Origin: Dehalococcoidia bacterium
Lineage (GTDB): Bacteria; Chloroflexota; Dehalococcoidia; UBA6926
Assembly (NCBI GenBank): GCA_965206275.1
Contig: OZ242203.1
Location: 1,678,485 to 1,742,484, forward strand
Direction of reading: 5' to 3'
Length of the DNA stretch: 64,000 nucleotides
The position numbers and the translations under genes were made by a program. The notes under the pieces were generated by a model. The model saw only the letters and a list, made by a program, of their open reading frames with translations. It was not told the DNA's origin and searched no databases. The number at the start of each line of letters is the position of its first letter. Within the stretch, counting starts at the first letter, position 1. Positions 1,827 to 63,722 of this stretch are shown one piece after another.

Positions 1827-2840
1827 ATGAAGGCACTTGTCTTCGACGAGTATGGGGGTCCGGAAGTCCTGCAATGGAAGGACATTGATGACCCCAAGGC
1901 TGGGCCGAATGACGTCGTCATTGAAGTTAAGGCAACGGCTATCAATTACAACGATGTTTGGGGACGCCGCGGTGCCCCTATGGAAGTGGAATTGCCCCAT
2001 ATCTCTGGCAGCGACGCATCCGGTGTTGTCGTGGATAAGGGCAGTGAAGTCACAACTCATTCCATCGGAGACGAAGTTGTCGTGCACTGTGGGCGCCCGG
2101 CTTTCAACAACCGCACGGGACAGGAATGCAACATCTGGGGTTATGACTGGCCCGCGCTTGACGGCGCGCATGGTCAGTATGTGAGAGTGCCGGCGGAGAA
2201 CGCCGTTCCCAAGCCCACCAATCTCACTCATGAAGAGGCGGCCTCATTCCCGCTTGTCCTCGTCACCACGTGGCGCAAGCTGGTTGAAAAGGCTCCGATT
2301 AAGCCCGGCGACCATGTCCTGATCTGGGGCGCGGCGGGCGGTCTTGGTGTCATGGCCATCCAGATTGCCAGGCTGTTCCAGGCGCACCCGATTGCCGTTG
2401 CTTCTAGCGACGAGAAGCTGGAGTTGTGCAAGGAGCTCGGCGCGGAGTACCTGATTAATCGCAAGACACAGGATGTCCGGCAAGAGATGCGCAATATCGT
2501 GGGGCGGCGCGGCGCACAGGTTGTATTCGAACACCCCGGCCAAGCAACCATGGGACTCAGTATCCAGCTTGCCAGTTGGGGCGGCACCGTCGTTACAAGC
2601 GGCGCAACCAGCGGCTACGACGCCAACATTGACCTCCGCCATATCTTCTTCCGACAGGTCAAGCTGGTTGGTTCCACCCTGGGAACCGTCCACCAGTTGC
2701 AGGATGCGCTGGACCAGGTGCAGGCGGGTCACATCAAGCCGGTCATCGACCGTGTCCTGCCGATGAAGGATGCCGGACAGGGACAAACATTGCTTGAGAC
2801 TGAAGAGGTCGCCGGCAAGGTCATCCTGGTACCGGATTAG
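1827..2840 (+). CDS. zinc-type alcohol dehydrogenase / NADPH:quinone oxidoreductase (MDR superfamily)
   Basis: GSDASGVV, the IWGAAGGLGVMAIQIA dinucleotide fold and a GKVILVP tail. RBS GGAAGGGAG lies upstream. Confidence 0.85.
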   Translation: MKALVFDEYGGPEVLQWKDIDDPKAGPNDVVIEVKATAINYNDVWGRRGAPMEVELPHISGSDASGVVVDKGSEVTTHSIGDEVVVHCGRPAFNNRTGQECNIWGYDWPALDGAHGQYVRVPAENAVPKPTNLTHEEAASFPLVLVTTWRKLVEKAPIKPGDHVLIWGAAGGLGVMAIQIARLFQAHPIAVASSDEKLELCKELGAEYLINRKTQDVRQEMRNIVGRRGAQVVFEHPGQATMGLSIQLASWGGTVVTSGATSGYDANIDLRHIFFRQVKLVGSTLGTVHQLQDALDQVQAGHIKPVIDRVLPMKDAGQGQTLLETEEVAGKVILVPD

Positions 2841-2867
2841 ACTTCCGCGAACGAAACGGTACGTAAA

Positions 2868-2899
2868 GGGGGCGTCCCAGGGGACGCCCCCTTTTATTT
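2868..2899. terminator. intrinsic terminator (GC stem + T-tract); the T-tract is the insertion target of the adjacent element
   Basis: GGGGGCGTCCC-AG-GGGACGCCCCC followed by TTTTATTT, 28 nt after the dehydrogenase stop. Confidence 0.8.
2892..2899. repeat. left copy of 8-bp target-site duplication TTTTATTT
   Basis: Identical octamer at 5957-5964. Each copy directly abuts a terminal inverted repeat. Confidence 0.8.
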
Positions 2900-2922
2900 G
2901 GGACTTATATACCTATGCACAC
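2900..2922 (+). repeat. left terminal inverted repeat GGGACTTATATACCTATGCACAC
   Basis: The reverse complement of 5934-5956 is GGGACTTATATACCTATGTACAC, one mismatch. Confidence 0.85.
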
Positions 2923-3086
2923 TACGCGGCGAAGATTGCTGTCCCCACTTCAATGACAATTCCCACGAGAGCCGAAACCAGTTGAACCAAGAACTCCGCT
3001 ACTGCAACAGGGGCGAATATGAGCGCTACGACAATTAGAATCGCCCAACCTGGGTTCTCACGTGCCCATTCCCACACGTAACTCAT
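2922..3086 (-). CDS. 54-aa hydrophobic small membrane protein (element cargo)
   Basis: Hand translation: MSYVWEWARENPGWAILIVVALIFAPVAVAEFLVQLVSALVGIVIEVGTAIFAA. Its ATG overlaps the upstream TGA (ATGA). It is below the track length cut-off. Confidence 0.5.
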   Translation of the reverse strand: MSYVWEWARENPGWAILIVVALIFAPVAVAEFLVQLVSALVGIVIEVGTAIFAA

Positions 3087-3298
3087 GCGCGGCACTCCTT
3101 ACATCGCCCGTCGTCGTAAAGGACTTCGGGATAGCTAACCTCACGCCCACAGTGAGCGCACTCGTAGGTCTTGGGCTTGCCGCTCCCTGGGAAAGTCCCT
3201 GAGAACATAACGCGGGCTATCTCGTCCGGCGTCGCGTCAATGCGCGGCGGGTAACGCCGTTCCATCGGGCGACCGCGTTCTTTCTTATCGCGTGGCAT
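3083..3298 (-). CDS. 71-aa zinc-ribbon protein (element cargo), function unknown
   Basis: CAHCG...CKEC pair, basic N-terminus, and translational coupling to the 54-aa ORF. Confidence 0.55.
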   Translation of the reverse strand: MPRDKKERGRPMERRYPPRIDATPDEIARVMFSGTFPGSGKPKTYECAHCGREVSYPEVLYDDGRCKECRA

Positions 3299-3362
3299 CG
3301 CTATATCTCGCTTTACAACTCGCTATAAATCCGTATCTGGTATACTGGGGACGCGAGAAGGA

Positions 3363-3396
3363 GGCTCTGTTGCGACACATGTGTCGCAACAGAGCC
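3363..3396. promoter_or_regulatory. 34-bp perfect palindrome (17+17, no spacer) upstream of the cargo tRNA
   Basis: GGCTCTGTTGCGACACA|TGTGTCGCAACAGAGCC followed by TTTG. It lies between the divergent small operon and the tRNA. Confidence 0.6.
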
Positions 3397-3407
3397 TTTG
3401 TCGTAAT

Positions 3408-3495
3408 GCCGGGGTGGTGGAACGGTAGACGCGCTGGCCTCTCAAGTCAGTGTCCATCGTTGGACGTGCGGGTTCGAATCCCGCCCCCGGCACCA
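3408..3495 (+). tRNA. class II (long variable arm, Leu-type body, A73, encoded CCA) tRNA; the hand fold gives anticodon CUC
   Basis: Acceptor GCCGGGG/CCCCGGC, D stem GTG/CGC, anticodon stem CTGGC/GTCAG with loop CTCTCAA, variable arm GTCCA-TCGT-TGGAC, T arm GCGGG-TTCGAAT-CCCGC. Confidence 0.85.
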
Positions 3496-3502
3496 TCTCC
3501 GT

Positions 3503-3573
3503 GGCCCGTGCCACCGGACGGCAACTCCCCTTGACGAAGGGAGCCATGATGGGTTCAATCCCCATACGGGCCA
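3503..3573 (+). pseudogene. degenerate tRNA-like gene (perfect acceptor and T arm, truncated D region, enlarged anticodon loop containing GAC)
   Basis: Acceptor GGCCCGT/ACGGGCC, T arm ATGGG-TTCAATC-CCCAT, anticodon stem CTCCC/GGGAG with 9-nt loop CTTGACGAA. Only 15 nt lie between the acceptor and anticodon stems, and there is no CCA. Confidence 0.4.
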
Positions 3574-3841
3574 CTTTCTCGGAGAAGTTAGTCACTCTAC
3601 AATGCATTGACACTGCGTTGTGACCTCCTTCCCGTCAAGACCATTGTACCTCGATTCTCTGGATCAAAAAAGACCTGGATTTGACCGACTTGCTCTCTGC
3701 CCTCTAGTCTGAAAGAGCCTACCAGTCCTAGTTCCCCGCATTGGGTTACTCAGGGATGGACTACACATGTCCCCTGCGGCCCAATGCGTGGTTCGACTGG
3801 TAGGCAAACAGTCCGATCCCAAGACCGCAGGGGGCACACTT

Positions 3842-4393
3842 ATGCGACTCGTCTTTGTTCTTGCCTTGCTATTGATTCTGGCCGCAGGATGCGACGCAGA
3901 AGCCGCTACACCCACTCCACGCGCCACACGGGTTGTCATGCACACGCCGACTCCTACGGCGACATTCATTCCGCGTCCAACAAGCACACCTGCTCCCACA
4001 GCAACGGCCACGGCAATAGCCCCACCAACCGTGAGGCCAACCGCACCCCCGATTGGCGCAGTCACAGTAACGCCGTTCCCGACACAGCCACCACGCAACA
4101 CGGCGCAGACCTCGCGCGTGCCCGTGAGCGTACAGCGCGGGTGTGATGCGGCGTCTGAATTACTTGCTCTCATGGAGAATCTTGACGAGGCAGGGATAGA
4201 GCGTAATCTGACCAGGCTTGCGCGAGCCATCATAAGCACAGGGGAATATGGATTAGACGCGCAGGGTCGGCTTGTGCTCTCGGACATGGCGTCTGCGGAA
4301 CAATACGTCAACGTGTACGACGCCTTCTGGGTGATTGAGTCCGGCCTCGAAACCTATATCCACCTGTGTGAGTTGCAGGGGTACACGCCTTAG
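3842..4393 (+). CDS. lipoprotein with Thr/Pro-rich linker (element cargo)
   Basis: Signal peptide plus lipobox MRLVFVLALLLILAAGC, then a TP-rich linker and a C-terminal domain of unknown function. I chose the internal ATG at 3842 over the track start 3767. Confidence 0.6.
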   Translation: MRLVFVLALLLILAAGCDAEAATPTPRATRVVMHTPTPTATFIPRPTSTPAPTATATAIAPPTVRPTAPPIGAVTVTPFPTQPPRNTAQTSRVPVSVQRGCDAASELLALMENLDEAGIERNLTRLARAIISTGEYGLDAQGRLVLSDMASAEQYVNVYDAFWVIESGLETYIHLCELQGYTP

Positions 4394-5358
4394 CCGTCGA
4401 TTAGATCGGCGTAGGGCAGGCGCTTGCCGTCTATGCCGCGTGCCATCGCTTCCATCTGCTCAAGGGTGTCCAGTGAGCGGTCGTTGTGCCGCCCCGCGAA
4501 CTCCGTGACGTACCTGTTCAGGTGCTTGGGACTCATCTTGTGGTAGATACCGTGATACCCGCGCTTTAGCATCGCCCAGTGGCTCTCAATGCCGTTTGTG
4601 TGGGCCATGCCGTCCACGAATTGACGGACTGAGTGCTTCACGACGCCGTGCCTGCGATTCAGGAACGGCAGGGCGCTATAGGATGCGTGCTCGTCCGTGT
4701 AGACCTGTACGCCCTCTTCCGTGCGCTCGTGGACGAACATCATAAGCGTTGCCGCACTCGTGGAATGCACGACCCGTGCGCTGACCTTGTTGGTCTCGCG
4801 GTCCTTGACACCCGCCACCACAGCCTTGCCGACCGTGCCACGTCCAGCGCGTAGCTTCTTGTTCCCGTGCTTGTTGTCTTCCTTGCCACCGATGTAGGTC
4901 TCATCCACTTCGACGGGGCCTGCGAATCGCTCAGTTGCCGTATCCCACGCTTGGCGGATCCGATGCGCCATGTACCATGCGGACTTCTGCGTGATGCCTA
5001 GATCGCGGTGCAGCTTCATGCTGGACACGCCCTTGAGGTTCGTGGAGAACAGGTAGAAGGCGAGCGCCCACTTGCCAAGCGGCAGGCGGGAATCGTGCAT
5101 GATGGTGCCGGTCTTGACGGTGAAGTCCTTCTTGCAGGCGTTGCAGTGGTACTGTGTGGTCTTGCGATTGGCATAAGGCTTGCGCGTGTGAACGTTGTCA
5201 CTGTCACAGTCCACGCAACGGACGCCGTCAGGCCAGCGCAACGACACGAACCATTCCTCGGCCTGTGTGTCGTCACCGAACCTCTTGACGGCATCCACAA
5301 GGGTTATGCCCTTGCGGTATGACTTGCCTGGTGCCTTCGCCATTCTTTCCGTGTTCAC
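4390..5358 (-). CDS. IS1595-family (ISXO2-like DDE) transposase
   Basis: N-terminal transposase zinc ribbon (CVDC...CNAC), VEVDETYIGG, and the HTNGIESHWAMLKR...Y.H.S.KHL tail typical of this family. Confidence 0.9.
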   Translation of the reverse strand: MNTERMAKAPGKSYRKGITLVDAVKRFGDDTQAEEWFVSLRWPDGVRCVDCDSDNVHTRKPYANRKTTQYHCNACKKDFTVKTGTIMHDSRLPLGKWALAFYLFSTNLKGVSSMKLHRDLGITQKSAWYMAHRIRQAWDTATERFAGPVEVDETYIGGKEDNKHGNKKLRAGRGTVGKAVVAGVKDRETNKVSARVVHSTSAATLMMFVHERTEEGVQVYTDEHASYSALPFLNRRHGVVKHSVRQFVDGMAHTNGIESHWAMLKRGYHGIYHKMSPKHLNRYVTEFAGRHNDRSLDTLEQMEAMARGIDGKRLPYADLIDG

Positions 5359-5444
5359 CGCCTTCCTGATTTATGTACTTAGTGTACACTATGGCGGCGG
5401 ATTTGTCAAGGTGTGATGTACGCTTATCCACAAGGAGGAACAGC

Positions 5445-5609
5445 ATGGCTCAAACCGCACCATGGCATTCAGTGAATTCAACCGTGTATCACGAATGCAC
5501 CAATTGCACCACGGGGAACAACATTGAGCAGGAGAACTGGCGAGCAGGAACTGGCCAAAGGCGACGATGCCTGGAGTGTGTAAGCCTTATTGCTTCCGGT
5601 GGTTGCTGA
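5445..5609 (+). CDS. 54-aa zinc-ribbon protein (element cargo)
   Basis: Strong RBS AAGGAGG 7 nt before ATG 5445. Motifs HECTNC...CLEC. The track start 5373 is rejected. Confidence 0.5.
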   Translation: MAQTAPWHSVNSTVYHECTNCTTGNNIEQENWRAGTGQRRRCLECVSLIASGGC

Positions 5610-5913
5610 GAAGAGGAACCTGTTCCCAGAACACGATTTCGGAGACAGGCCCTTCTGGTTGACCGTGAATAACTGACCACACACGGCGAATCTCTTTGAC
5701 AGGCAACCCGTTATAGATCGCCACCCCAAGCGCCCGCCATTCTTCGCCATGATCGCCCTCGAAACGGACGGCTGGCTCTGGGTAGCTATGGCCTTTACCG
5801 CCCTGACAAGATTCGTATGTGTGGATTCCCTCACGACGCAGGATTAATACTGCTCTCTCAATACCAGAATCGAGCGGTGGGTCAAAGTCCTCTCGTAGGG
5901 CATACTCATTCAT
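5587..5913 (-). CDS. 108-aa hypothetical protein (element cargo)
   Basis: Only long ORF in this stretch. It starts 21 nt inside the right TIR. Third-position GC looks lower by eye than in flanking host genes. Confidence 0.5.
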   Translation of the reverse strand: MNEYALREDFDPPLDSGIERAVLILRREGIHTYESCQGGKGHSYPEPAVRFEGDHGEEWRALGVAIYNGLPVKEIRRVWSVIHGQPEGPVSEIVFWEQVPLLSNHRKQ

Positions 5914-5933
5914 GGTGATCGCCTACGATGTCG

Positions 5934-5956
5934 GTGTACATAGGTATATAAGTCCC
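5934..5956 (-). repeat. right terminal inverted repeat
   Basis: GTGTACATAGGTATATAAGTCCC is the reverse complement of the left TIR with one mismatch. Confidence 0.85.
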
Positions 5957-5964
5957 TTTTATTT
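5957..5964. repeat. right copy of 8-bp target-site duplication TTTTATTT
   Basis: Identical to 2892-2899. Confidence 0.8.
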
Positions 5965-5997
5965 CCCACACGCGGGCGAGAATGAGAAACTGGGCGC

Positions 5998-6738
5998 ATG
6001 ACTCGTCCTGCCAGGCTCACCCGGGCCGTCGTCCTGATTGATGGCCTTGACCCGCGTGCGGTCCTGCCCGCTGCGGGCCCACATCCGGCATTCAGAGAGG
6101 TGGACGGCATGCCCGCCGCCGATGTGCTTCTCCGACATTTGGCAGGGCAAGGAATGACAGAGGTATGGCTTGTTTCGCGCGCCTTACCCGGTATGGTTGT
6201 TCACTATTTCGGCGATGGGAGCAGGTGGGGAGTCAGGGCGACGCACATCCGACAGGACGGCGCGCCGGGCTCAGGCGGCGCGCTTATGGCTGCTCGCCAG
6301 CAAATAACTGAATCAACACTCGTGATTGACGGCGCTCTCGTCACGGATTTCCACCTCACTGCCATGTACGACGCACACTGCACCGTGGACACAGATGTCA
6401 CCATTTGTTTGACCGGCGAAGTAGAGGAGACAGCAGGATTGCCCCGTGCGCGAACGGATTCCTCCTCCCGTCTCGTGCAGGAAATACTGGTTGATCCACC
6501 GTTCCCGACTGACCCGGAGATTCTTGTCGGAGTTGGTATCTACATCATCGAACCCCAGGCAGTGGAGCCCTTACAGAAGGCAGGAGTGAACGCGGATTGG
6601 GTGACAGATGTCCTTCCCACTCTGGCCCGACAGAGCCGTGTTCAGGGATGGCAGGCCAACCCGGCCACCCGATTCAATCTTCCGCGCCGTGTCCGAGTGA
6701 TGCACTCCCAGACCGGACGCGCATTGCCTTCAATCTGA
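5998..6738 (+). CDS. nucleotidyltransferase-fold protein (sugar-phosphate NTP-transferase-like)
   Basis: An N-terminal AVVLIDG... beta-strand, GAPGSGGAL and overall length resemble GlmU/RmlA-type N-terminal domains. The motif match is weak. Confidence 0.5.
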   Translation: MTRPARLTRAVVLIDGLDPRAVLPAAGPHPAFREVDGMPAADVLLRHLAGQGMTEVWLVSRALPGMVVHYFGDGSRWGVRATHIRQDGAPGSGGALMAARQQITESTLVIDGALVTDFHLTAMYDAHCTVDTDVTICLTGEVEETAGLPRARTDSSSRLVQEILVDPPFPTDPEILVGVGIYIIEPQAVEPLQKAGVNADWVTDVLPTLARQSRVQGWQANPATRFNLPRRVRVMHSQTGRALPSI

Positions 6739-8246: not shown

Positions 8247-9077
8247 TCAAACCTCAAGCGGCGTATCGTCCCGGTTCGCCCATTCCCGCATGGACCCGTC
8301 ATAGTTCCGCGTGCTTTCGTAGCCAACCAGCCGCATGACGAATACTCCGTGCGCCGCACGGATGCCACCCTGTCAATACGTGTAGACGTTCTTGTCCGGC
8401 GTGATGCCGTGTTCAGAAAGCAGTTGTCGTATCTCGGATGCCGACTTGAACCGATGCGTTTCGCGGTCCATCAGGTTAAGCCACTCAAGGTGAACGGCCC
8501 CGGGAATATGCCCCGCTCGCGCGTTGGCACGGTTGTTGGAGCCGTCCCATTCGCCATCTGTGCGAACGTCCCAAACGACGGAGTCCGCCAGCGTGCACGC
8601 CTCTTTCAACTCGTCGACTTTCACGAGCATTGAGTCGTCAAGGTTCGGGGTGAATGTCACGCCTTCCGCCCGCGCCGGACGCTGGAAACTGATTACGTGG
8701 CCGCCGTTAACCCAGCCGCGCCAGCCGCCATTCAGCACCCGCGCGTTCCGGTGTCCATATGTGTTGAGAACCCACCACAAGCGGGCCGCCGTCACACTCT
8801 GCGCATTGTCGTAAGAGATTACTGCTGTGTCATCGCCGATCCCCAATCCCTCACACATCTCCTTAAATTGTGAGGACGTCATCATCAGCGTGCGATTCGT
8901 GTCGGGGTCTTTCACGAAGTTGTCCGGAATGAGGACCGCGCCCGGGATATGACCCCTGTTGTAGCCCGCGTCAACGTCGCAGTCCACAACAACAACATTG
9001 TCATCATCCAAATGCTCCGCCAGCCAATCCGCCTCCACCAGGTACTCCGGGTGGGCATAGTCCTCGTTAGTCATCAT
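8247..9077 (-). CDS. two-domain rhodanese / thiosulfate-3-mercaptopyruvate sulfurtransferase with in-frame TGA (8373-8375) at the catalytic Cys position; candidate selenoprotein
   Basis: The track ORF stops at ...DKNVYTY-TGA. The same frame continues QGGIRAAHGVFVMRLVGYESTRNYDGSMREWANRDDTPLEV-TGA, completing the Y-C-x-x-G-x-R active-site loop and the NYDGSW-EW tail. Start ATG 9077 has RBS GGAGGGGAGGG. Confidence 0.75.
8347..8361 (-). promoter_or_regulatory. candidate bacterial SECIS hairpin for the rhodanese TGA
   Basis: On the coding strand: UGA, then 11 nt, then CCGUGC-GGC-GCACGG. Confidence 0.45.
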
Positions 9078-9108: not shown

Positions 9109-9711
9109 ATGAGCATTCTCGACAAGGCGCAGCGCATGTTCGGTGGTTCCGCTGCTGTGGACAAGGATCGCGTTCCACCCGGTCAGGCCGTTACGCAGAA
9201 GTTTCCCGTCCTCTCTTACGGACAGACTCCGCAGATTGACCTCGCTACGTGGACGTTTGAGGTCATCGGCCACGTCGACAATCCGGTTCGCCTCACGTGG
9301 GAGCAATTCCTTACTCGAGCGAACGATGCCGTGACCGCGGACTTTCACTGCGTTACCGGATGGTCACGACTCGACAATGAGTGGGAAGGCGTCTTTGTCC
9401 GTGATTTATTCGACGAGGCCCGCATCCGCCCAACCGCCACACATGTCATGGCCCACTGCTATGGCGGCTACACAACGAACATCCCACTATCGGCACTCTT
9501 GAATCCCGATGTCCTGATTGCTCATCGCCACGATGGCGCGCCGTTGGAACCGGAACACGGCGGCCCAGCCCGTCTCATCGTGCCTGACCGCTACGCGTAC
9601 AAGAGCGCCAAGTGGATTAAGGCGCTGGAGCTCATGCCGGAGAACAAGCGTGGATTCTGGGAGATCCACGGCTACAACTCCAACGCAGACCCGTGGAAAG
9701 TGGAGCGCTAA
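9109..9711 (+). CDS. molybdopterin-dependent oxidoreductase (sulfite-oxidase fold, YedY/YuiH-like)
   Basis: FHCVTGWS motif (Mo-ligand Cys context), GGPARLIVP and YAYKSAKWI. Confidence 0.8.
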   Translation: MSILDKAQRMFGGSAAVDKDRVPPGQAVTQKFPVLSYGQTPQIDLATWTFEVIGHVDNPVRLTWEQFLTRANDAVTADFHCVTGWSRLDNEWEGVFVRDLFDEARIRPTATHVMAHCYGGYTTNIPLSALLNPDVLIAHRHDGAPLEPEHGGPARLIVPDRYAYKSAKWIKALELMPENKRGFWEIHGYNSNADPWKVER

Positions 9712-34725: not shown

Positions 34726-35199
34726 ATGACGGCTTCCAATCGGTCAAACGGCGCTAACCCGGACGCCCGCCAGCGCGCACGTGACATCATCTCCGGCTAC
34801 GTCGGCCACAAGGGCGCGTTGCTCATGGCACTGCTGGATGTCCAATACCAGCTCAACTACATCCCCGAAACGACCGTTGATGACGCCGCTGAAATCCTTG
34901 GCTACTCGCAGCCCGAGGTCTGGGGCGTCCTCTCCTTCTACTCCGATTTCTCCGTGGGGCAGGGCAGCGACCACTTCATTGACGTGTGCATCGATGCCCC
35001 GTGCCACGTGACCGGCGCTCGCTCGATAGAGCGCGCTATCCGTGACGCGGTGGCTGATTCAGACGTCGAAGTACGCACCATTTCCTGCCCGCGCCTTTGC
35101 AACCAGGCCCCCGTCGTGGCCTACGACCAGCGATGGCGCGGCCAGCTAACGCCGGACACCGCCGCCGAATTCGCCCGAAAGATGGGAGTCGCTTCCTAA
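34726..35199 (+). CDS. NuoE-like [2Fe-2S] thioredoxin-fold subunit
   Basis: CIDAPCHVTG...ISCPRLCNQAP cysteine pattern. I chose the internal ATG 34726. Confidence 0.8.
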   Translation: MTASNRSNGANPDARQRARDIISGYVGHKGALLMALLDVQYQLNYIPETTVDDAAEILGYSQPEVWGVLSFYSDFSVGQGSDHFIDVCIDAPCHVTGARSIERAIRDAVADSDVEVRTISCPRLCNQAPVVAYDQRWRGQLTPDTAAEFARKMGVAS

Positions 35200-35201
35200 C
35201 T

Positions 35202-36920
35202 ATGCCGTCTGATCTCTACACCACCCTTAAGCAAGAAGCGGATGCCGCATGGGCGGAATGGGATGATCCGTCCGTTGCTCGCGTCAGCGTCGGCATCTCC
35301 GCCGCCGCTCTCACCGTCGGCGCAGGCGAAACGCTTGACGCCGTCCGGCGCGCGCTCCACACGTTCAACATCAAAGCCCGCGTGCTTGAAGTCGGCGATA
35401 TTGGCTTCTCGTGGGCCGATCCCGTCGTTCATATCGCTCCCGCCAACATGCCGCGCATCACTTATGGGAATGTGACTGCAGACAAAGTTAATGACCTTAT
35501 TCGTGATGTGCTTGTCGATGGCAATCTCCGGCCTGACCTGGCTCTCGGTGTGCAGGGCGACACTCCCATCGCCGGCGTAGATATTCCTCTCCTCGATGAA
35601 CAGTCCTGGATGCGTGACCAACTCCGACTTCTGATGGCCAATTTCGGCCACATTGAACCGGGCAACCTGATGCACTACGTTGCGCGCGGCGGCCTGAAAT
35701 CGCTGGACAAGGCGCTCAATGAGATGTCGCCGCAGGACGTGGTCGATACCGTCCGCAACTCCGGACTGCGCGGCCGCGGCGGCGCGCTCTTCCCCGCCGG
35801 CGTCAAATGGAGCTTCATGGGCCCGCCCGGCCCCGGCGATCGCTACCTCGCAATCAACGGTGAGGAAGGCGACCCCGGCGCGTTCACCGACGCCGCGATC
35901 TTCGAGAATGATCCCCATCGATTGCTCGAGGGTGTGCTGATCGCCTCATATGCGATGGGAGCGAACAAGAGCTATATCCACATCCGCGCGGAGTATCGGC
36001 TGCCCCTTGAACGCCTCCGACGCGCCCTCCATGAGATGGAGGAGCGCGGACTGGTCGGCGACAATGTCATGGGCACCGAGTTCTCCCACGAGGTTGAGAT
36101 TGAGGCCACCGGCCACGCCTACATTTGCGGCGAAGAGACGGCCCTGATGGAATCCGTTGAGGGCCATCGCGGCGCGCCGCGCCCGCGCCCGCCGTTCCCT
36201 GCCGCCTACGGCATCTTTGGCCGCCCGACCACCATCAACAACGTCAAGACGATTTCCTATGTCCCTCACGTGCTCGAGATGGGTGCGGAGGCATTCGCCG
36301 CCATCGGTACGGAAAACGCATCCGGCACGGCAATGTTGTCACTTTCCGGCCATATAAATAAACCGGGAATTGCAGAAATCCCCGTTGGAATTAATCTTAC
36401 TGGAGTTATTGAAAACGTTGCAGGCGGCATCCGAAACGGCAAACAGCCGAAGGCTCTCCAGTGCGGCGGCCCGCTCGGCGGCATCATGTCCGCTGATGAG
36501 ATGGATATGCCTGCCGAGTTCCAGGCTATGACCGCCAAGGGCAGCCCGCTCGGCTCCGGCGGTATTCTTGCCCTTGATGAGGACACCTGCATAGTCGATC
36601 TCGTCAAAAACATCGCCGAGTTCATCGACGAGGAATCGTGCGGCAAATGCTTCCCGTGCCGCAAGGGGGCGACGCACATCTCCCGCCTGCTTGCCACCAT
36701 CACGGAAGGCTTCGGGCAGGAGGGCGACCTTGCCAAGATGCAGAACGTCGGCACCGCCATGGTGCAGGGCTCGCTCTGCGGCCTCGGCCAACTTGCCCCC
36801 GGCGTCCTGAACAACGCTATCCGCTACTTCCGCGCGGAATTTGAGGAGCACATAGATGAAAAATTCTGTCGCACCGGCTCCTGCGCGGCCCTGACCCGTC
36901 AGGAACAGCCCGTTGCCTAA
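35202..36920 (+). CDS. NuoF-like NAD(H)-binding FMN/[4Fe-4S] subunit (FdsB-type with N-terminal extension)
   Basis: GLRGRGGALFPAGVKW, GEEGDPGAF, ESCGKCFPCRKG. Confidence 0.85.
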   Translation: MPSDLYTTLKQEADAAWAEWDDPSVARVSVGISAAALTVGAGETLDAVRRALHTFNIKARVLEVGDIGFSWADPVVHIAPANMPRITYGNVTADKVNDLIRDVLVDGNLRPDLALGVQGDTPIAGVDIPLLDEQSWMRDQLRLLMANFGHIEPGNLMHYVARGGLKSLDKALNEMSPQDVVDTVRNSGLRGRGGALFPAGVKWSFMGPPGPGDRYLAINGEEGDPGAFTDAAIFENDPHRLLEGVLIASYAMGANKSYIHIRAEYRLPLERLRRALHEMEERGLVGDNVMGTEFSHEVEIEATGHAYICGEETALMESVEGHRGAPRPRPPFPAAYGIFGRPTTINNVKTISYVPHVLEMGAEAFAAIGTENASGTAMLSLSGHINKPGIAEIPVGINLTGVIENVAGGIRNGKQPKALQCGGPLGGIMSADEMDMPAEFQAMTAKGSPLGSGGILALDEDTCIVDLVKNIAEFIDEESCGKCFPCRKGATHISRLLATITEGFGQEGDLAKMQNVGTAMVQGSLCGLGQLAPGVLNNAIRYFRAEFEEHIDEKFCRTGSCAALTRQEQPVA

Positions 36921-52949: not shown

Positions 52950-55268
52950 GTGACGCAGGCAGCCCCCGCCAACACAATCACCATTACGATTGACGGGCGG
53001 CAGGTCACCGCCCCGGCGGGGTCTACCATCCTTGAGGCGGCCACTGAGGCCGGTATCTACATTCCCACCCTCTGCTACGACGAGCGGCTCAAGGCCTATG
53101 GCGCCTGCCGCATGTGCATGGTTGAACAGGTCGATCGCCCCGGCTTTGCTGCCGCGTGTGTCGCCCCTGCCATGCCGGACGCCGCCTACCGCACCAACTC
53201 CGACGAAACCGTCGAACTGCGCCAGTCCGTTCTCAACCTGCTCATGTCCGAGCATCCGCACGGATGCCTGACCTGCGACCGCATCGTTCATTGCGGCCCC
53301 AACGATATCTGCCTGCGCAACGTCTCCGTGACCGATCGCTGTGTTGTCTGCCCTCAGAACCAGCGGTGTGAGTTGCAGGCGACTGTCGAAATCGTCGGCG
53401 TCACGGAACAGCTGCTCCCGTACAACTACCGTGAGTTGCCCATACGTACTGAAGACCCGCACATCGACCGGGACTACAACCTCTGCATCTCATGCGCCCG
53501 CTGCGTCCGCGTCTGTGATGAGGTCATCGGCGCGGAAGCCATCTCCATGGTCGACCGTGGCGACCGAATCCTCCCTGGCACGCCCAATGATGTTCCCCTC
53601 TCTGACCCGCTCACCGGCTGCATCTTCTGCGGCGCGTGCGTGGATGTCTGCCCCGTGGGCGCGCTCACGGAAAAGGACAACAAGTGGGCCGGCCTGCCGG
53701 ATACCAACGTCACAACCGTCTGCACGGAGTGTGAGATCGGCTGCCAGGTCACCGCTGAACTTCAGGATGGTCGCCTGCTGCGCGTGACACCGGACATCGA
53801 GGGCGGCGCGAATGGCGGCTTTGCCTGCATCCACGGTAAGTTTGAACTCGCCAACGAGTCCAACAATGAGGCCCGCCTGATCAGCGCCATGATTCGGGAT
53901 GCCAACGGAGCGCTTGGTGAGGCGTCATGGGACGATGCGATTGCTGCCGCTGCGGACGGCCTCCGTGGCCATGCCGGCGGTTCTGCTGCCGTCGTGATTT
54001 CTCCTCGCGTCGCCAATGAGGACGCGTGGGCATTGAATCGTCTCGCCCGTGAAACCCTGGAGACTGAGCGTGTTGCGATGGCGGCGTCCGTGTCGGTTCA
54101 GGCGGGCAGAGAGCTCGCCGCCATGTTCGGCAGCGCCGCCAATGTGAATCCCATCCGGGACATTGCGAAATCTCGCGCCGTTCTCGTGATTGGTTCTGAT
54201 ATAGAAGTCACCCATCCCGTCGCCGCCTACCAGGTTCACAAGGCAGTCAACTACAACGACGCCACTCTTATCGGCATCGGCCACGTCGCCTACCCGGAGC
54301 TTGGACGCGCCTCCGAGCGATGGCTAAATTGCGAGGAAGGTGCTGAGCTTGCCGTCCTGCGTGGCATCCTCCGCGCGCTGCTCGACGCCAATCTTGTGCA
54401 CGATGAATTCGTTGAAGAATCCATAGACGGCCTCGCTGACCTGTCTGAAAGCCTCGAGAGAACAACCGTTGAAGACGCAGCGGCTCAGTCAGGCGTTTCC
54501 GCCGATGACCTCCGTTGGGTCGCCCGCATCATCGGCACGTCCACACCCGCCGCTCTCATCTACGGCGAGAGCGAGAATGACGCTCCGGGCTTGGCTACAC
54601 TGATTGCCGCAATCGCCTCAGTGACGGGCAACGTCGCCAACGCGCAGGGCGGTGGTCTCCATGTGCTGCACTCCGGTGGCGGCAACGTGCAGGGAGTCAG
54701 CGATGTGCTTGGCGCAGATGCCGCCACGCTTGACGAGACCGTTGACGCTATCGAATCTGGCGCCGTCACAGCCCTGTACTGGACCGGCGGGATCCCCGCC
54801 GAAATCAGCGATTCTGCCCGCGCGCGGCTGCTCGCCGCGCTGGGTCGCCTTGAGTTCCTGGTCGTGCAGGGCCTTGTTATCGACGATGAGCTGGCATCGC
54901 TCGCCAACGTCCTCATTCCCGCCGCGGCCGCCGTCGAACGCGAGGGAACGTACACGAACGCCGAGCGCCGCGTCCAGCGCGTCCGCCCCATCAAGGACGC
55001 CCCGGGCGATGCACAGGCGGTCTGGCGCGCCCCGGTTGAGATCACCCGCCACCTCGGCGCATCGGACTTCGGGTATGACAATGCCGATACAATCCTTGCT
55101 GACATCGCCGCAGCCGTACCAAACTACGCCGGCATCACCTCTGAGGTGCTCGAATCTCGATTCACCGGCCCCACGTGGCCGCTTCGGGAAGATAGCGCGG
55201 ATGAGCGTCTCTACCAGGGCGGAGTGTTCGGCAACGCCAGCGGCCGCATTCGCCTCGCAGCTGTTTAG
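52950..55268 (+). CDS. NuoG / formate-dehydrogenase-alpha-like Fe-S and molybdopterin-fold subunit
   Basis: 2Fe-2S (C...C..C...C near CRMCMVE), two ferredoxin-type CxxCxxCxxxCP motifs, CTECEIGC...C, then a molybdopterin-oxidoreductase-like domain. Confidence 0.8.
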   Translation: MTQAAPANTITITIDGRQVTAPAGSTILEAATEAGIYIPTLCYDERLKAYGACRMCMVEQVDRPGFAAACVAPAMPDAAYRTNSDETVELRQSVLNLLMSEHPHGCLTCDRIVHCGPNDICLRNVSVTDRCVVCPQNQRCELQATVEIVGVTEQLLPYNYRELPIRTEDPHIDRDYNLCISCARCVRVCDEVIGAEAISMVDRGDRILPGTPNDVPLSDPLTGCIFCGACVDVCPVGALTEKDNKWAGLPDTNVTTVCTECEIGCQVTAELQDGRLLRVTPDIEGGANGGFACIHGKFELANESNNEARLISAMIRDANGALGEASWDDAIAAAADGLRGHAGGSAAVVISPRVANEDAWALNRLARETLETERVAMAASVSVQAGRELAAMFGSAANVNPIRDIAKSRAVLVIGSDIEVTHPVAAYQVHKAVNYNDATLIGIGHVAYPELGRASERWLNCEEGAELAVLRGILRALLDANLVHDEFVEESIDGLADLSESLERTTVEDAAAQSGVSADDLRWVARIIGTSTPAALIYGESENDAPGLATLIAAIASVTGNVANAQGGGLHVLHSGGGNVQGVSDVLGADAATLDETVDAIESGAVTALYWTGGIPAEISDSARARLLAALGRLEFLVVQGLVIDDELASLANVLIPAAAAVEREGTYTNAERRVQRVRPIKDAPGDAQAVWRAPVEITRHLGASDFGYDNADTILADIAAAVPNYAGITSEVLESRFTGPTWPLREDSADERLYQGGVFGNASGRIRLAAV

Positions 55269-63198: not shown

Positions 63199-63263
63199 TC
63201 CGCGTCAACTGAACAAAAGGCGTACAATCCCCCCATACCCTCAAGACCAAGAGGAGCAAACAA

Positions 63264-63722
63264 ATGACAACAGCAGATCGCGAATCAGCAGCCGACTACC
63301 CGCCGTCTCCCGGTCCGGTTCAGCCGGTGAACCGTCGACTACGGGTCGAATTCAACGGAGAAGTCCTCGCGGAAACAACGCGCGGCGTCCGCATCGTTGA
63401 GAAGGACATGCCACCCGTCTACTACTTCCCGCCCGAGGACGTACGGAAGGAGTTCCTCGTCGCTGAAGACCGCTCCTCCACTTGACCCTTCAAGGGGGAC
63501 GCCAGTTATTGGGGCGTCCGAGTTGGGGATCGGGAAGCCGAAACGGCAATCTGGAGCTACGTGAATCCGAAGGACGAGTACGAGGACATCAGGGAATACA
63601 TGGCCTTCTATACCTGGAAGCTCGACGCCGCCTACGTCGACGACCTCCCTGTTCAATTGGTTCACGGTGACTTCTACGGAGGCTGGCGCACCGAGGATAT
63701 CATCGGCCCCTGGAACTCCTAG
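63264..63722 (+). CDS. DUF427-family protein with in-frame TGA (63483-63485) at the conserved Cys position; candidate selenoprotein
   Basis: The frame reads ...FLVAEDRSST-TGA-PFKGDASYWGVRVGDREAETAIWSY... to TAG 63720-63722. Family members carry C-P-(F/W/Y)-K-G-x-A-x-Y at this spot. RBS GAGGAG precedes the ATG. Confidence 0.7.
63497..63519 (+). promoter_or_regulatory. candidate bacterial SECIS hairpin for the DUF427 TGA
   Basis: UGA, then 11 nt, then GGACGCC-AGUUAUUGG-GGCGUCC. Confidence 0.45.

Follow-up and report, generated by a model that had tools for sequence, protein, structure and literature searches.

A conserved in-frame UGA at the cysteine column of a DUF427 gene points to a probable selenoprotein family missing from current catalogues

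The DUF427 gene and its conserved TGA

The stretch of DNA analysed here, 64,000 nt of contig OZ242203.1 (assembly GCA_965206275.1) from a Dehalococcoidia bacterium and hereafter called the window, carries close to its end a gene of the DUF427 family whose reading frame is crossed by a TGA codon at the position of the family's conserved cysteine. With this TGA read through, the gene (63264-63722, plus strand) encodes 152 residues, and its layout is as follows:

63252-63256, plus strand: Shine-Dalgarno-like AGGAG, read from the sequence, 7 nt upstream of the ATG
63264-63482, plus strand: DUF427 coding sequence, part 1, codons 1-73 (MTTADRES...EDRSST), with the ATG at 63264
63483-63485, plus strand: in-frame UGA, proposed selenocysteine (Sec) codon for residue 74, aligned to the family's Cys column
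63486-63722, plus strand: DUF427 coding sequence, part 2, codons 75-152 (PFKGDASYW...GPWNS), ending in TAG at 63720-63722
63497-63519, plus strand: putative bacterial Sec insertion sequence (SECIS) hairpin, with a 7-bp stem and the 9-nt loop AGUUAUUGG, 11 nt after the UGA

An earlier, sequence-only reading of this DNA had described an open reading frame (ORF) that stops after VAEDRSST at TGA 63483-63485 and then runs on for 78 codons to a TAG, a description that proved exact; past the TGA the frame begins PFKGDASYWGVRVGD... (in a longer excerpt, PFKGDASYWGVRVGDREAETAIWSYVNPKDEYEDIREYMAFY...). With the recoded position entered as Cys, the product is recognised by Pfam PF04248 (DUF427; short name NTP_transf_9) with E = 6e-33 and 113 bits, the gathering cut-off being 22.1 bits, and the match covers residues 27-117 and profile positions 2-92 of 93, with the TGA inside the domain. 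DUF427 is widespread in bacteria and fungi, and a crystal structure has been available since 2008. Public gene calls split the gene into a 73-aa DUF427 fragment and a spurious 53-aa ORF starting at an internal GTG (L099-L103, L106 and L109), the exact 73-aa product being annotated on 5 public contigs.

Alignment with full-length close homologs places the TGA on a Cys that is invariant in 15/15 of them, within the motif (S/T)-x-C-x-(F/Y/W)-K-G-x-A-x-Y. Of the 379 DUF427 domains that were fully covered, 339 have Cys and 17 have Ser at this column, the non-Cys exceptions being mostly single copies inside two- to four-domain proteins, and the only family member of solved structure (3DJM) also carries Cys there. 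The sequence-only reading had proposed such a family motif, and the alignments bear it out, in that the TGA and the Cys column of (S/T/H)-x-C-(P/E)-(F/W/Y)-K-G-x-A-x-Y coincide. A second, semi-conserved Cys is found in the long single-domain subfamily within D-A-C-[YF]-V (window 63648-63650, in the region of codon 129). Every member of the Sec clade has Ala there, as do its nearest Cys forms, P0001 and L008, but P0002 and most other members retain the Cys.

Searching with the 73-residue N-terminal piece retrieved seven clusters of exactly 73 aa (71-96% identity, 55 member sequences), in all of which the gene callers end at the same codon. At the DNA level, the nearest seven species representatives of GTDB (L001-L007, 71-98% identity) are all metagenome-assembled genomes (MAGs) of Dehalococcoidia, and the TGA and an intact downstream frame are present in 7/7. 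Six further members of the clade have the TGA as well, namely L092, L106, L107, L108, L109 and the window's own strain, the latter represented by five contigs; the source of L106 is a circular contig of 1.72 Mb with 204x coverage, and that of L108 a scaffold from Tara Oceans. Altogether, 13/13 Dehalococcoidia orthologs keep the TGA in frames free of additional stops or frameshifts, together with the start MTTADRES or MATADRES; the recoding signature and its conservation can be read directly from these genomes. The next closest ortholog, L008, is a Cys form with TGC at this position and 70% identity (70-75% between the Cys form and the members of the clade), and it has downstream synteny in common with the Sec clade.

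The part of the gene beyond the TGA evolves as coding sequence. Among the closer species, codons 75-152 show dN/dS values of 0.01-0.22 at dS of 0.13-0.8 (Nei-Gojobori method), rising to 0.24-0.44 against L007, and the values for codons 1-73 are of the same order. Moreover, the internal stop is invariably TGA at dS up to ~1.5, whereas the terminator differs among orthologs (TAG, TGA or TAA). Decay of the downstream frame and a sequencing error had both been named beforehand as findings that would undo the proposal; what is observed is purifying selection (dN/dS 0.01-0.22), and error is ruled out by independent assemblies, one of them at 204x.

The recoded form is not confined to this clade. A survey of 80 genome loci, and a scan of metagenomes with the TGA-containing pattern U-x-[FY]-K-G-x-A-x-Y-W that gave 18 matches, 11/18 of them genuine DUF427 genes, uncovered a varied set of TGA forms. 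One of the 80 genome loci, in an unrelated MAG (L079), encodes a two-domain DUF427 protein in which TGA takes the place of the Cys codon in domain 1 and the corresponding codon of domain 2 is TGC. The metagenomic matches comprise L092, which belongs to the window's clade, the two-domain proteins L081, L085, L086 and L093 with TGA at the column, the long single-domain L084 and the short L087, both with TGA, and another short type represented by L094, L097 and L098. In the two-domain proteins (L079, L081, L085, L086 and L093) the TGA lies in domain 1, and domain 2 keeps its Cys where it is readable (L079 and L081). Two more clusters at 50% identity, P0206 and P0239, end exactly at the Cys column. 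TGA forms thus occur in the window's clade and in at least 4-5 other lineages, and the search for further TGA-containing DUF427 genes that the sequence-only reading had proposed found many of them, in genomes and metagenomes alike. The best Cys-form relative of each Sec group is as close to it as any other Sec group, or closer, as illustrated by L081 (76% identity to a Cys form versus 56% to the nearest Sec form) and by L007 (75% to the Cys form L008 versus 72-73% to its own Sec relatives), and for this reason the exchange between Cys and Sec must have happened repeatedly.

A candidate recoding signal, a second recoded gene and other features of the window

The hairpin that follows the UGA is built from GGACGCC (63497-63503), the loop AGUUAUUGG (63504-63512) and GGCGUCC (63513-63519), and its GC-rich 7-bp stem, starting 11 nt past the codon, is present as previously described. 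The published model of the bacterial SECIS (bSECIS) specifies a loop of 3-9 nt with a G in its first two positions, an upper stem of 4-16 bp, a UGA-to-loop distance of 16-37 nt and a minimum free energy of -7.5 kcal/mol or lower (PMC13188914). Scored with our own implementation of these criteria, used in place of bSECISearch, the window hairpin agrees with all four (9-nt loop AGU..., 7 bp, 18 nt spacing, -12.0 kcal/mol), an outcome in line with the bacterial SECIS test that had been proposed for it. L001-L003, L108 and L109 share this hairpin, and L094, L097 and L098, from another lineage, have hairpins that also pass.

Stronger evidence than the window hairpin alone is provided by the comparison between Sec and Cys forms. 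The 48 nt past the codon are more stable in Sec forms (n=9) than in Cys forms (n=68), with p = 7e-4, in a model-free test where GC content was regressed out and one sequence per lineage was kept; among the 68 sites of the Cys forms, 7% reach -7.5 kcal/mol.

Within the clade the signal itself varies. In L004-L007 and L107 the first hairpin pairs in another register, is bulged and carries a loop of the AUUAC type, and in L106 it is weaker. An additional hairpin of 8 bp, capped by a GGA or UGA triloop and with a stability of -12 to -14 kcal/mol, is present in L004, L007, L106 and L107, and L005, L006 and L092 are listed with it as well; it reads CGUGUCGG-GGA-CCGACACG or CGCGUCGG-[GU]GA-CCGGCGCG and spans +36 to +55 after the UGA. 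One compensatory change, from a U-A to a C-G pair, is seen in its stem, and the distance from the UGA to its loop is 41 nt, just beyond the range of the model. The second hairpin occurs only in clade members with a non-canonical first hairpin and is absent from the window's type. There seem to be, in this regard, two signal designs in one clade, the first relying on a single canonical hairpin and the other combining a bulged hairpin with an additional 8-bp one 41 nt downstream.

A second gene of the window is interrupted in the same manner. The sequence-only reading had pointed to a recoded rhodanese gene some 55 kb away, which is indeed present on the minus strand, where the core of its hairpin begins 10 nt past the UGA:

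8247-9077, minus strand: two-domain rhodanese / 3-mercaptopyruvate-sulfurtransferase-like gene, with two Pfam Rhodanese matches (E = 1.8e-36); the start codon at 9077 is our choice
8373-8375, minus strand: UGA at the rhodanese active-site Cys, Y-U-Q-G-G-I-R (translation ...NVYTY*QGGIRAAH)
8344-8365, minus strand: SECIS-like hairpin of the rhodanese gene, 9 pairs with the loop GGC

This hairpin agrees with the bSECIS criteria too (spacing of 17 nt, -10.7 kcal/mol), and the best NCBIfam match of the protein is 3-mercaptopyruvate sulfurtransferase, under the curated cut-off. Forms with U-x-x-G of the 'rhodanese-related sulfurtransferase' are catalogued selenoproteins (PMC13188914), and the gene at 8247-9077 is likely to encode a selenoprotein of this known family. 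It is also publicly annotated as a shortened product, of 233 aa, and its divergent neighbour (9109-9711, plus strand) encodes a sulfite-oxidase-type molybdopterin-binding domain, Oxidored_molyb.

Elsewhere in the window TGA is the ordinary terminator of many other ORFs, and there is therefore no alternative genetic code. Dehalococcoidia are rich in selenoproteins according to BSepDB, and two recoded genes per 64 kb would be consistent with the counts given there for this class. A screen of GC3-GC2 around every in-frame TGA of the window was too noisy in this GC-rich genome, and only the DUF427 and rhodanese genes stand out in it. The commonest bacterial selenoprotein family is apparently present in the window in a non-Sec form: a 772-aa NuoG / formate-dehydrogenase-alpha-like protein (52950-55268, plus strand) has 2Fe-2S, 4Fe-4S and molybdopterin domains and no in-frame TGA. 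A NuoF-like FMN/4Fe-4S subunit is encoded at 35097-36920 (plus strand).

At the other end of the window lies a strain-specific insertion of about 3.1 kb (~2840-5998), recognised because two further assemblies of this organism (L104 and L105) have an ADH gene followed, after ~93 nt, by an NTP-transferase gene. The insertion contains an IS1595-family (ISXO2-like) transposase (4393-5358, minus strand), two ORFs without a Pfam match (3767-4393, plus strand, and 5587-5913, minus strand) and an odd tRNA of 88 nt (3408-3495, plus strand). The body of this tRNA is of the tRNA-Leu type, with a 3-bp D-stem, a long variable arm, A73 and an encoded CCA, and its anticodon loop, CU-CUC-AA, puts a Glu (GAG) anticodon on a type-II, Leu-like molecule; ARAGORN calls it tRNA-Glu(ctc) and the Rfam tRNA model gives it 54.8 bits. 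If it were charged by LeuRS, GAG would be read as Leu.

Readings of the UGA codon

The TGA on the Cys column, the conserved translation downstream of it and the recurrence in many genomes form a combination that is unexplained by chance, and we consider it highly likely that 63264-63722 is a genuine Sec-decoded DUF427 gene. It would then give rise to one DUF427 protein of 152 residues with Sec at position 74. We infer both the insertion of Sec and the SECIS role of the hairpin: in keeping with the published model, the hairpin at 63497-63519 would work as a bacterial SECIS that recruits SelB-GTP-Sec-tRNA(Sec), and the UGA would consequently be decoded as Sec and not as a stop.

Several results weigh against this reading. 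The genes for the Sec machinery (selA, selB, selD and tRNA-Sec) were not found in the 64-kb window or in 705 kb of related loci, in a search that combined crude motif patterns, tRNA detection with ARAGORN, and Pfam matching of ORFs in the size range of SelA/B/D. As for the signal, the hairpins of L004-L007, L079 and L084 fail the loop-G rule in our implementation. The window hairpin has a fold z-score of -1.54 versus shuffled sequences, 16/200 of which fold equally well, and after 2.6% of all 2167 TGA trinucleotides in the window a hairpin of equal or greater stability fits the same criteria. Clean covariation is not seen either, since the conserved G-V-R codons leave the 3′ arm no freedom to vary, and where the 5′ arm has changed, the register of pairing is shifted and not compensated. 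Moreover, the Cys ortholog L008 retains a weakened hairpin, of -9.1 versus about -13.7 kcal/mol. Taken alone, the hairpin is weak evidence.

Among the alternatives to Sec decoding, the one that survives best, improbable as we hold it, is that the UGA is read through without Sec, a near-cognate or suppressor tRNA inserting Trp, Cys or another residue. What the conservation data strictly prove is full-length translation only, which such a tRNA would also deliver, and most Sec forms have a C after the UGA, a leaky context for a stop; the machinery search described above is likewise compatible with it. On the other hand, in each of five or six separate lineages it is specifically the Cys column that is recoded, as expected of a classic Sec/Cys signature, a hairpin that fits the bSECIS criteria stands at the right distance, and the Sec forms carry downstream structure that the Cys forms lack to that extent. 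Furthermore, TGA is a normal terminator elsewhere in the window, and in the same window rhodanese, an established selenoprotein family, is recoded likewise in a lineage that is selenoprotein-rich.

More improbable still is that the TGA acts as a true stop, with a functional 73-residue fragment and a downstream part that is untranslated or made from an internal start. Such a reading agrees with the automatic annotation of five contigs, which gives exactly the 73-aa and 53-aa ORFs, and the GTG at 63561 could begin the 53-aa product. However, the 25 codons from the TGA to this GTG (PFKGDASYWGVRVGDREAETAIWSY) contain the most conserved motif of the family and differ among orthologs in largely synonymous ways, both the Pfam domain and the beta-tent fold require the two halves, and an internal stop that is never TAA or TAG (dS up to ~1.5) stands next to a terminal stop that varies. 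Because the TGA is conserved, the frame beyond it intact and under selection, and the terminator variable, a truly truncated product is excluded, and with it a pseudogene or a sequencing error. A lone in-frame stop in metagenome-derived sequence is the commonest sign of a pseudogene or of a sequencing or assembly error, but 13 orthologs, assembled independently and with different sequencing technologies, have this TGA, one of them in the circular 204x contig; together with a dN/dS well under 1 on both sides of it and the lack of more stops or frameshifts, this leaves the last explanation a negligible chance.

With Sec decoding as the favoured reading, the question is whether the family had been listed before. 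The 2026 catalogue of prokaryotic selenoproteins (PMC13188914) has no entry for PF04248/DUF427, the family is not among the nine new ones of deep-Sep, and no NCBIfam model matches the DUF427 protein. In the searchable full texts, no paper treats DUF427 as a selenoprotein, the two that contain both terms being on unrelated subjects and the family table of BSepDB and supplementary tables lying outside that search, so that a prior listing is possible. The statement, in the sequence-only reading, that DUF427 is off the published selenoprotein lists proves right for the 2026 catalogue, NCBIfam and the searchable papers. DUF427 is thus very probably an overlooked selenoprotein family, brought to light by the classic Sec/Cys signature and missed by current catalogues, NCBIfam rules and gene callers, to the point that every public call inspected stops at 73 residues. 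New bacterial selenoprotein families are still described regularly (nine in 2025), and this one would be a solid, incremental addition of interest to specialists. A broader proposal, to which we give an even chance, is that of an unlisted selenoprotein family with repeated exchange of Cys for Sec in at least five or six lineages, in single- and two-domain proteins, which would have that Cys as the catalytic centre of a new thiol/selenol enzyme with the beta-tent fold, comparable to MsrB/SelR though acting on another substrate, and whose recoding signal would have been rebuilt in two designs within one clade.

Fold, possible function and known systems

The AlphaFold model of P0001, a Cys form 70% identical to the window protein and not the window protein itself, has a pLDDT of 91.8 and superposes on the crystal structure 3DJM with TM 0.87 (range 0.84-0.88) and an rmsd of 1.5 A (Foldseek). 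DUF427 has been grouped in the beta-tent fold with MsrB, GFA, CULT, yippee, the RIG-I CTD, MSS4 and TCTP, and is described as being systematically without the zinc site (PMC4287342). In this fold the ligand cradle is built from the C-terminal beta-meander, whose last strand carries a conserved pair of aromatic residues, and the catalytic Cys of MsrB sits in that cradle (PMC4287342). In DUF427, the invariant residues C74, K77, G78, A80, Y82 and W97-x-Y99 are on consecutive strands (65-74, 78-87 and 90-99). The window protein is expected to fold as a beta-tent with Sec at the end of strand 65-74 and the invariant residues on the adjoining strands, and by analogy we infer that U74 would occupy a cradle equivalent to that of MsrB.

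Sec/Cys pairs mark catalytic redox cysteines, and they are among the few indicators of a catalytic redox or nucleophilic Cys that can be obtained from sequence only. Because of this property and of the recurrent Sec/Cys exchange, DUF427 is taken here as a thiol/selenol-dependent enzyme in which residue 74 would be the nucleophile or redox centre. The conserved Cys is probably the reactive centre of the family; for residue 74 of the window protein as a catalytic redox or nucleophilic centre, the balance tips moderately in favour, and the residue may also be a metal ligand. Since the second semi-conserved Cys is Ala throughout the Sec clade, its members would work without a resolving Cys. The proposal supplies a testable hypothesis for the function of DUF427, namely Cys74 (C-x-x-K-G) as an active site.

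The redox part of this interpretation has its own unfavourable results. The gene neighbourhood, which in the clade is mutS-mutL-DUF427-DUF2007-dnaE and elsewhere is unrelated, was uninformative as a clue to function, with the housekeeping mutS-mutL upstream and dnaE downstream. Foldseek against the PDB returned 3DJM as the only significant match, with no characterised enzyme and RIG-I at E = 3.2, and none of the nine papers that name DUF427 as a whole word reports functional data. Two further leads were discarded: the link of PF04248 to deoxyhypusine monooxygenase in ECDomainMiner, with a low 'silver' score of 0.333, was taken as annotation noise, and the 11 apparent 'DUF427' matches in work on glutamine riboswitches (PMC6212724) refer to DUF4278 and are irrelevant.

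One of the closest known systems is 3DJM (RSPH17029_0682 of Rhodobacter sphaeroides), which belongs to the same family (profile E = 4e-19), has the same fold and carries Cys at the TGA column. In contrast to the window protein, this Cys form ends at 116 residues and lacks the C-terminal extension; its deposition gives no function for it. The catalogued U-x-x-G rhodanese selenoproteins have the U-Q-G-G loop position in common with the rhodanese of the window, in a family distinct from DUF427; their bearing on the present case lies solely in the indication that UGA is decoded as Sec by this organism. At the level of evidence, DUF427 resembles DUF523, DUF466/KCU-star, DUF1858 and DUF3179, for which the same signature has been described, with TGA on a conserved Cys, numerous Cys homologs, TGA homologs from other Sec users and a hairpin close behind the codon (PMC13188914); DUF523 was reported without other TGA homologs, whereas for DUF427 such forms are present in five or six lineages at the least.

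A further parallel is MsrB/SelR. Mammalian MsrB1 has Sec at the catalytic position, where most MsrB members have Cys, and MsrB1/SelR is, like DUF427, a small single-domain beta-tent protein with a key Cys that is Sec in some members. Unlike DUF427, MsrB/SelR has zinc-knuckle CxxC pairs and belongs to PF01641; the two families show no detectable similarity in sequence (Pfam gives only PF04248 for the window protein) and MsrB is absent among the Foldseek matches, so the resemblance is one of fold and logic only. If true, the present interpretation would extend the MsrB precedent, with DUF427 as a second beta-tent protein that uses Sec for its key Cys.

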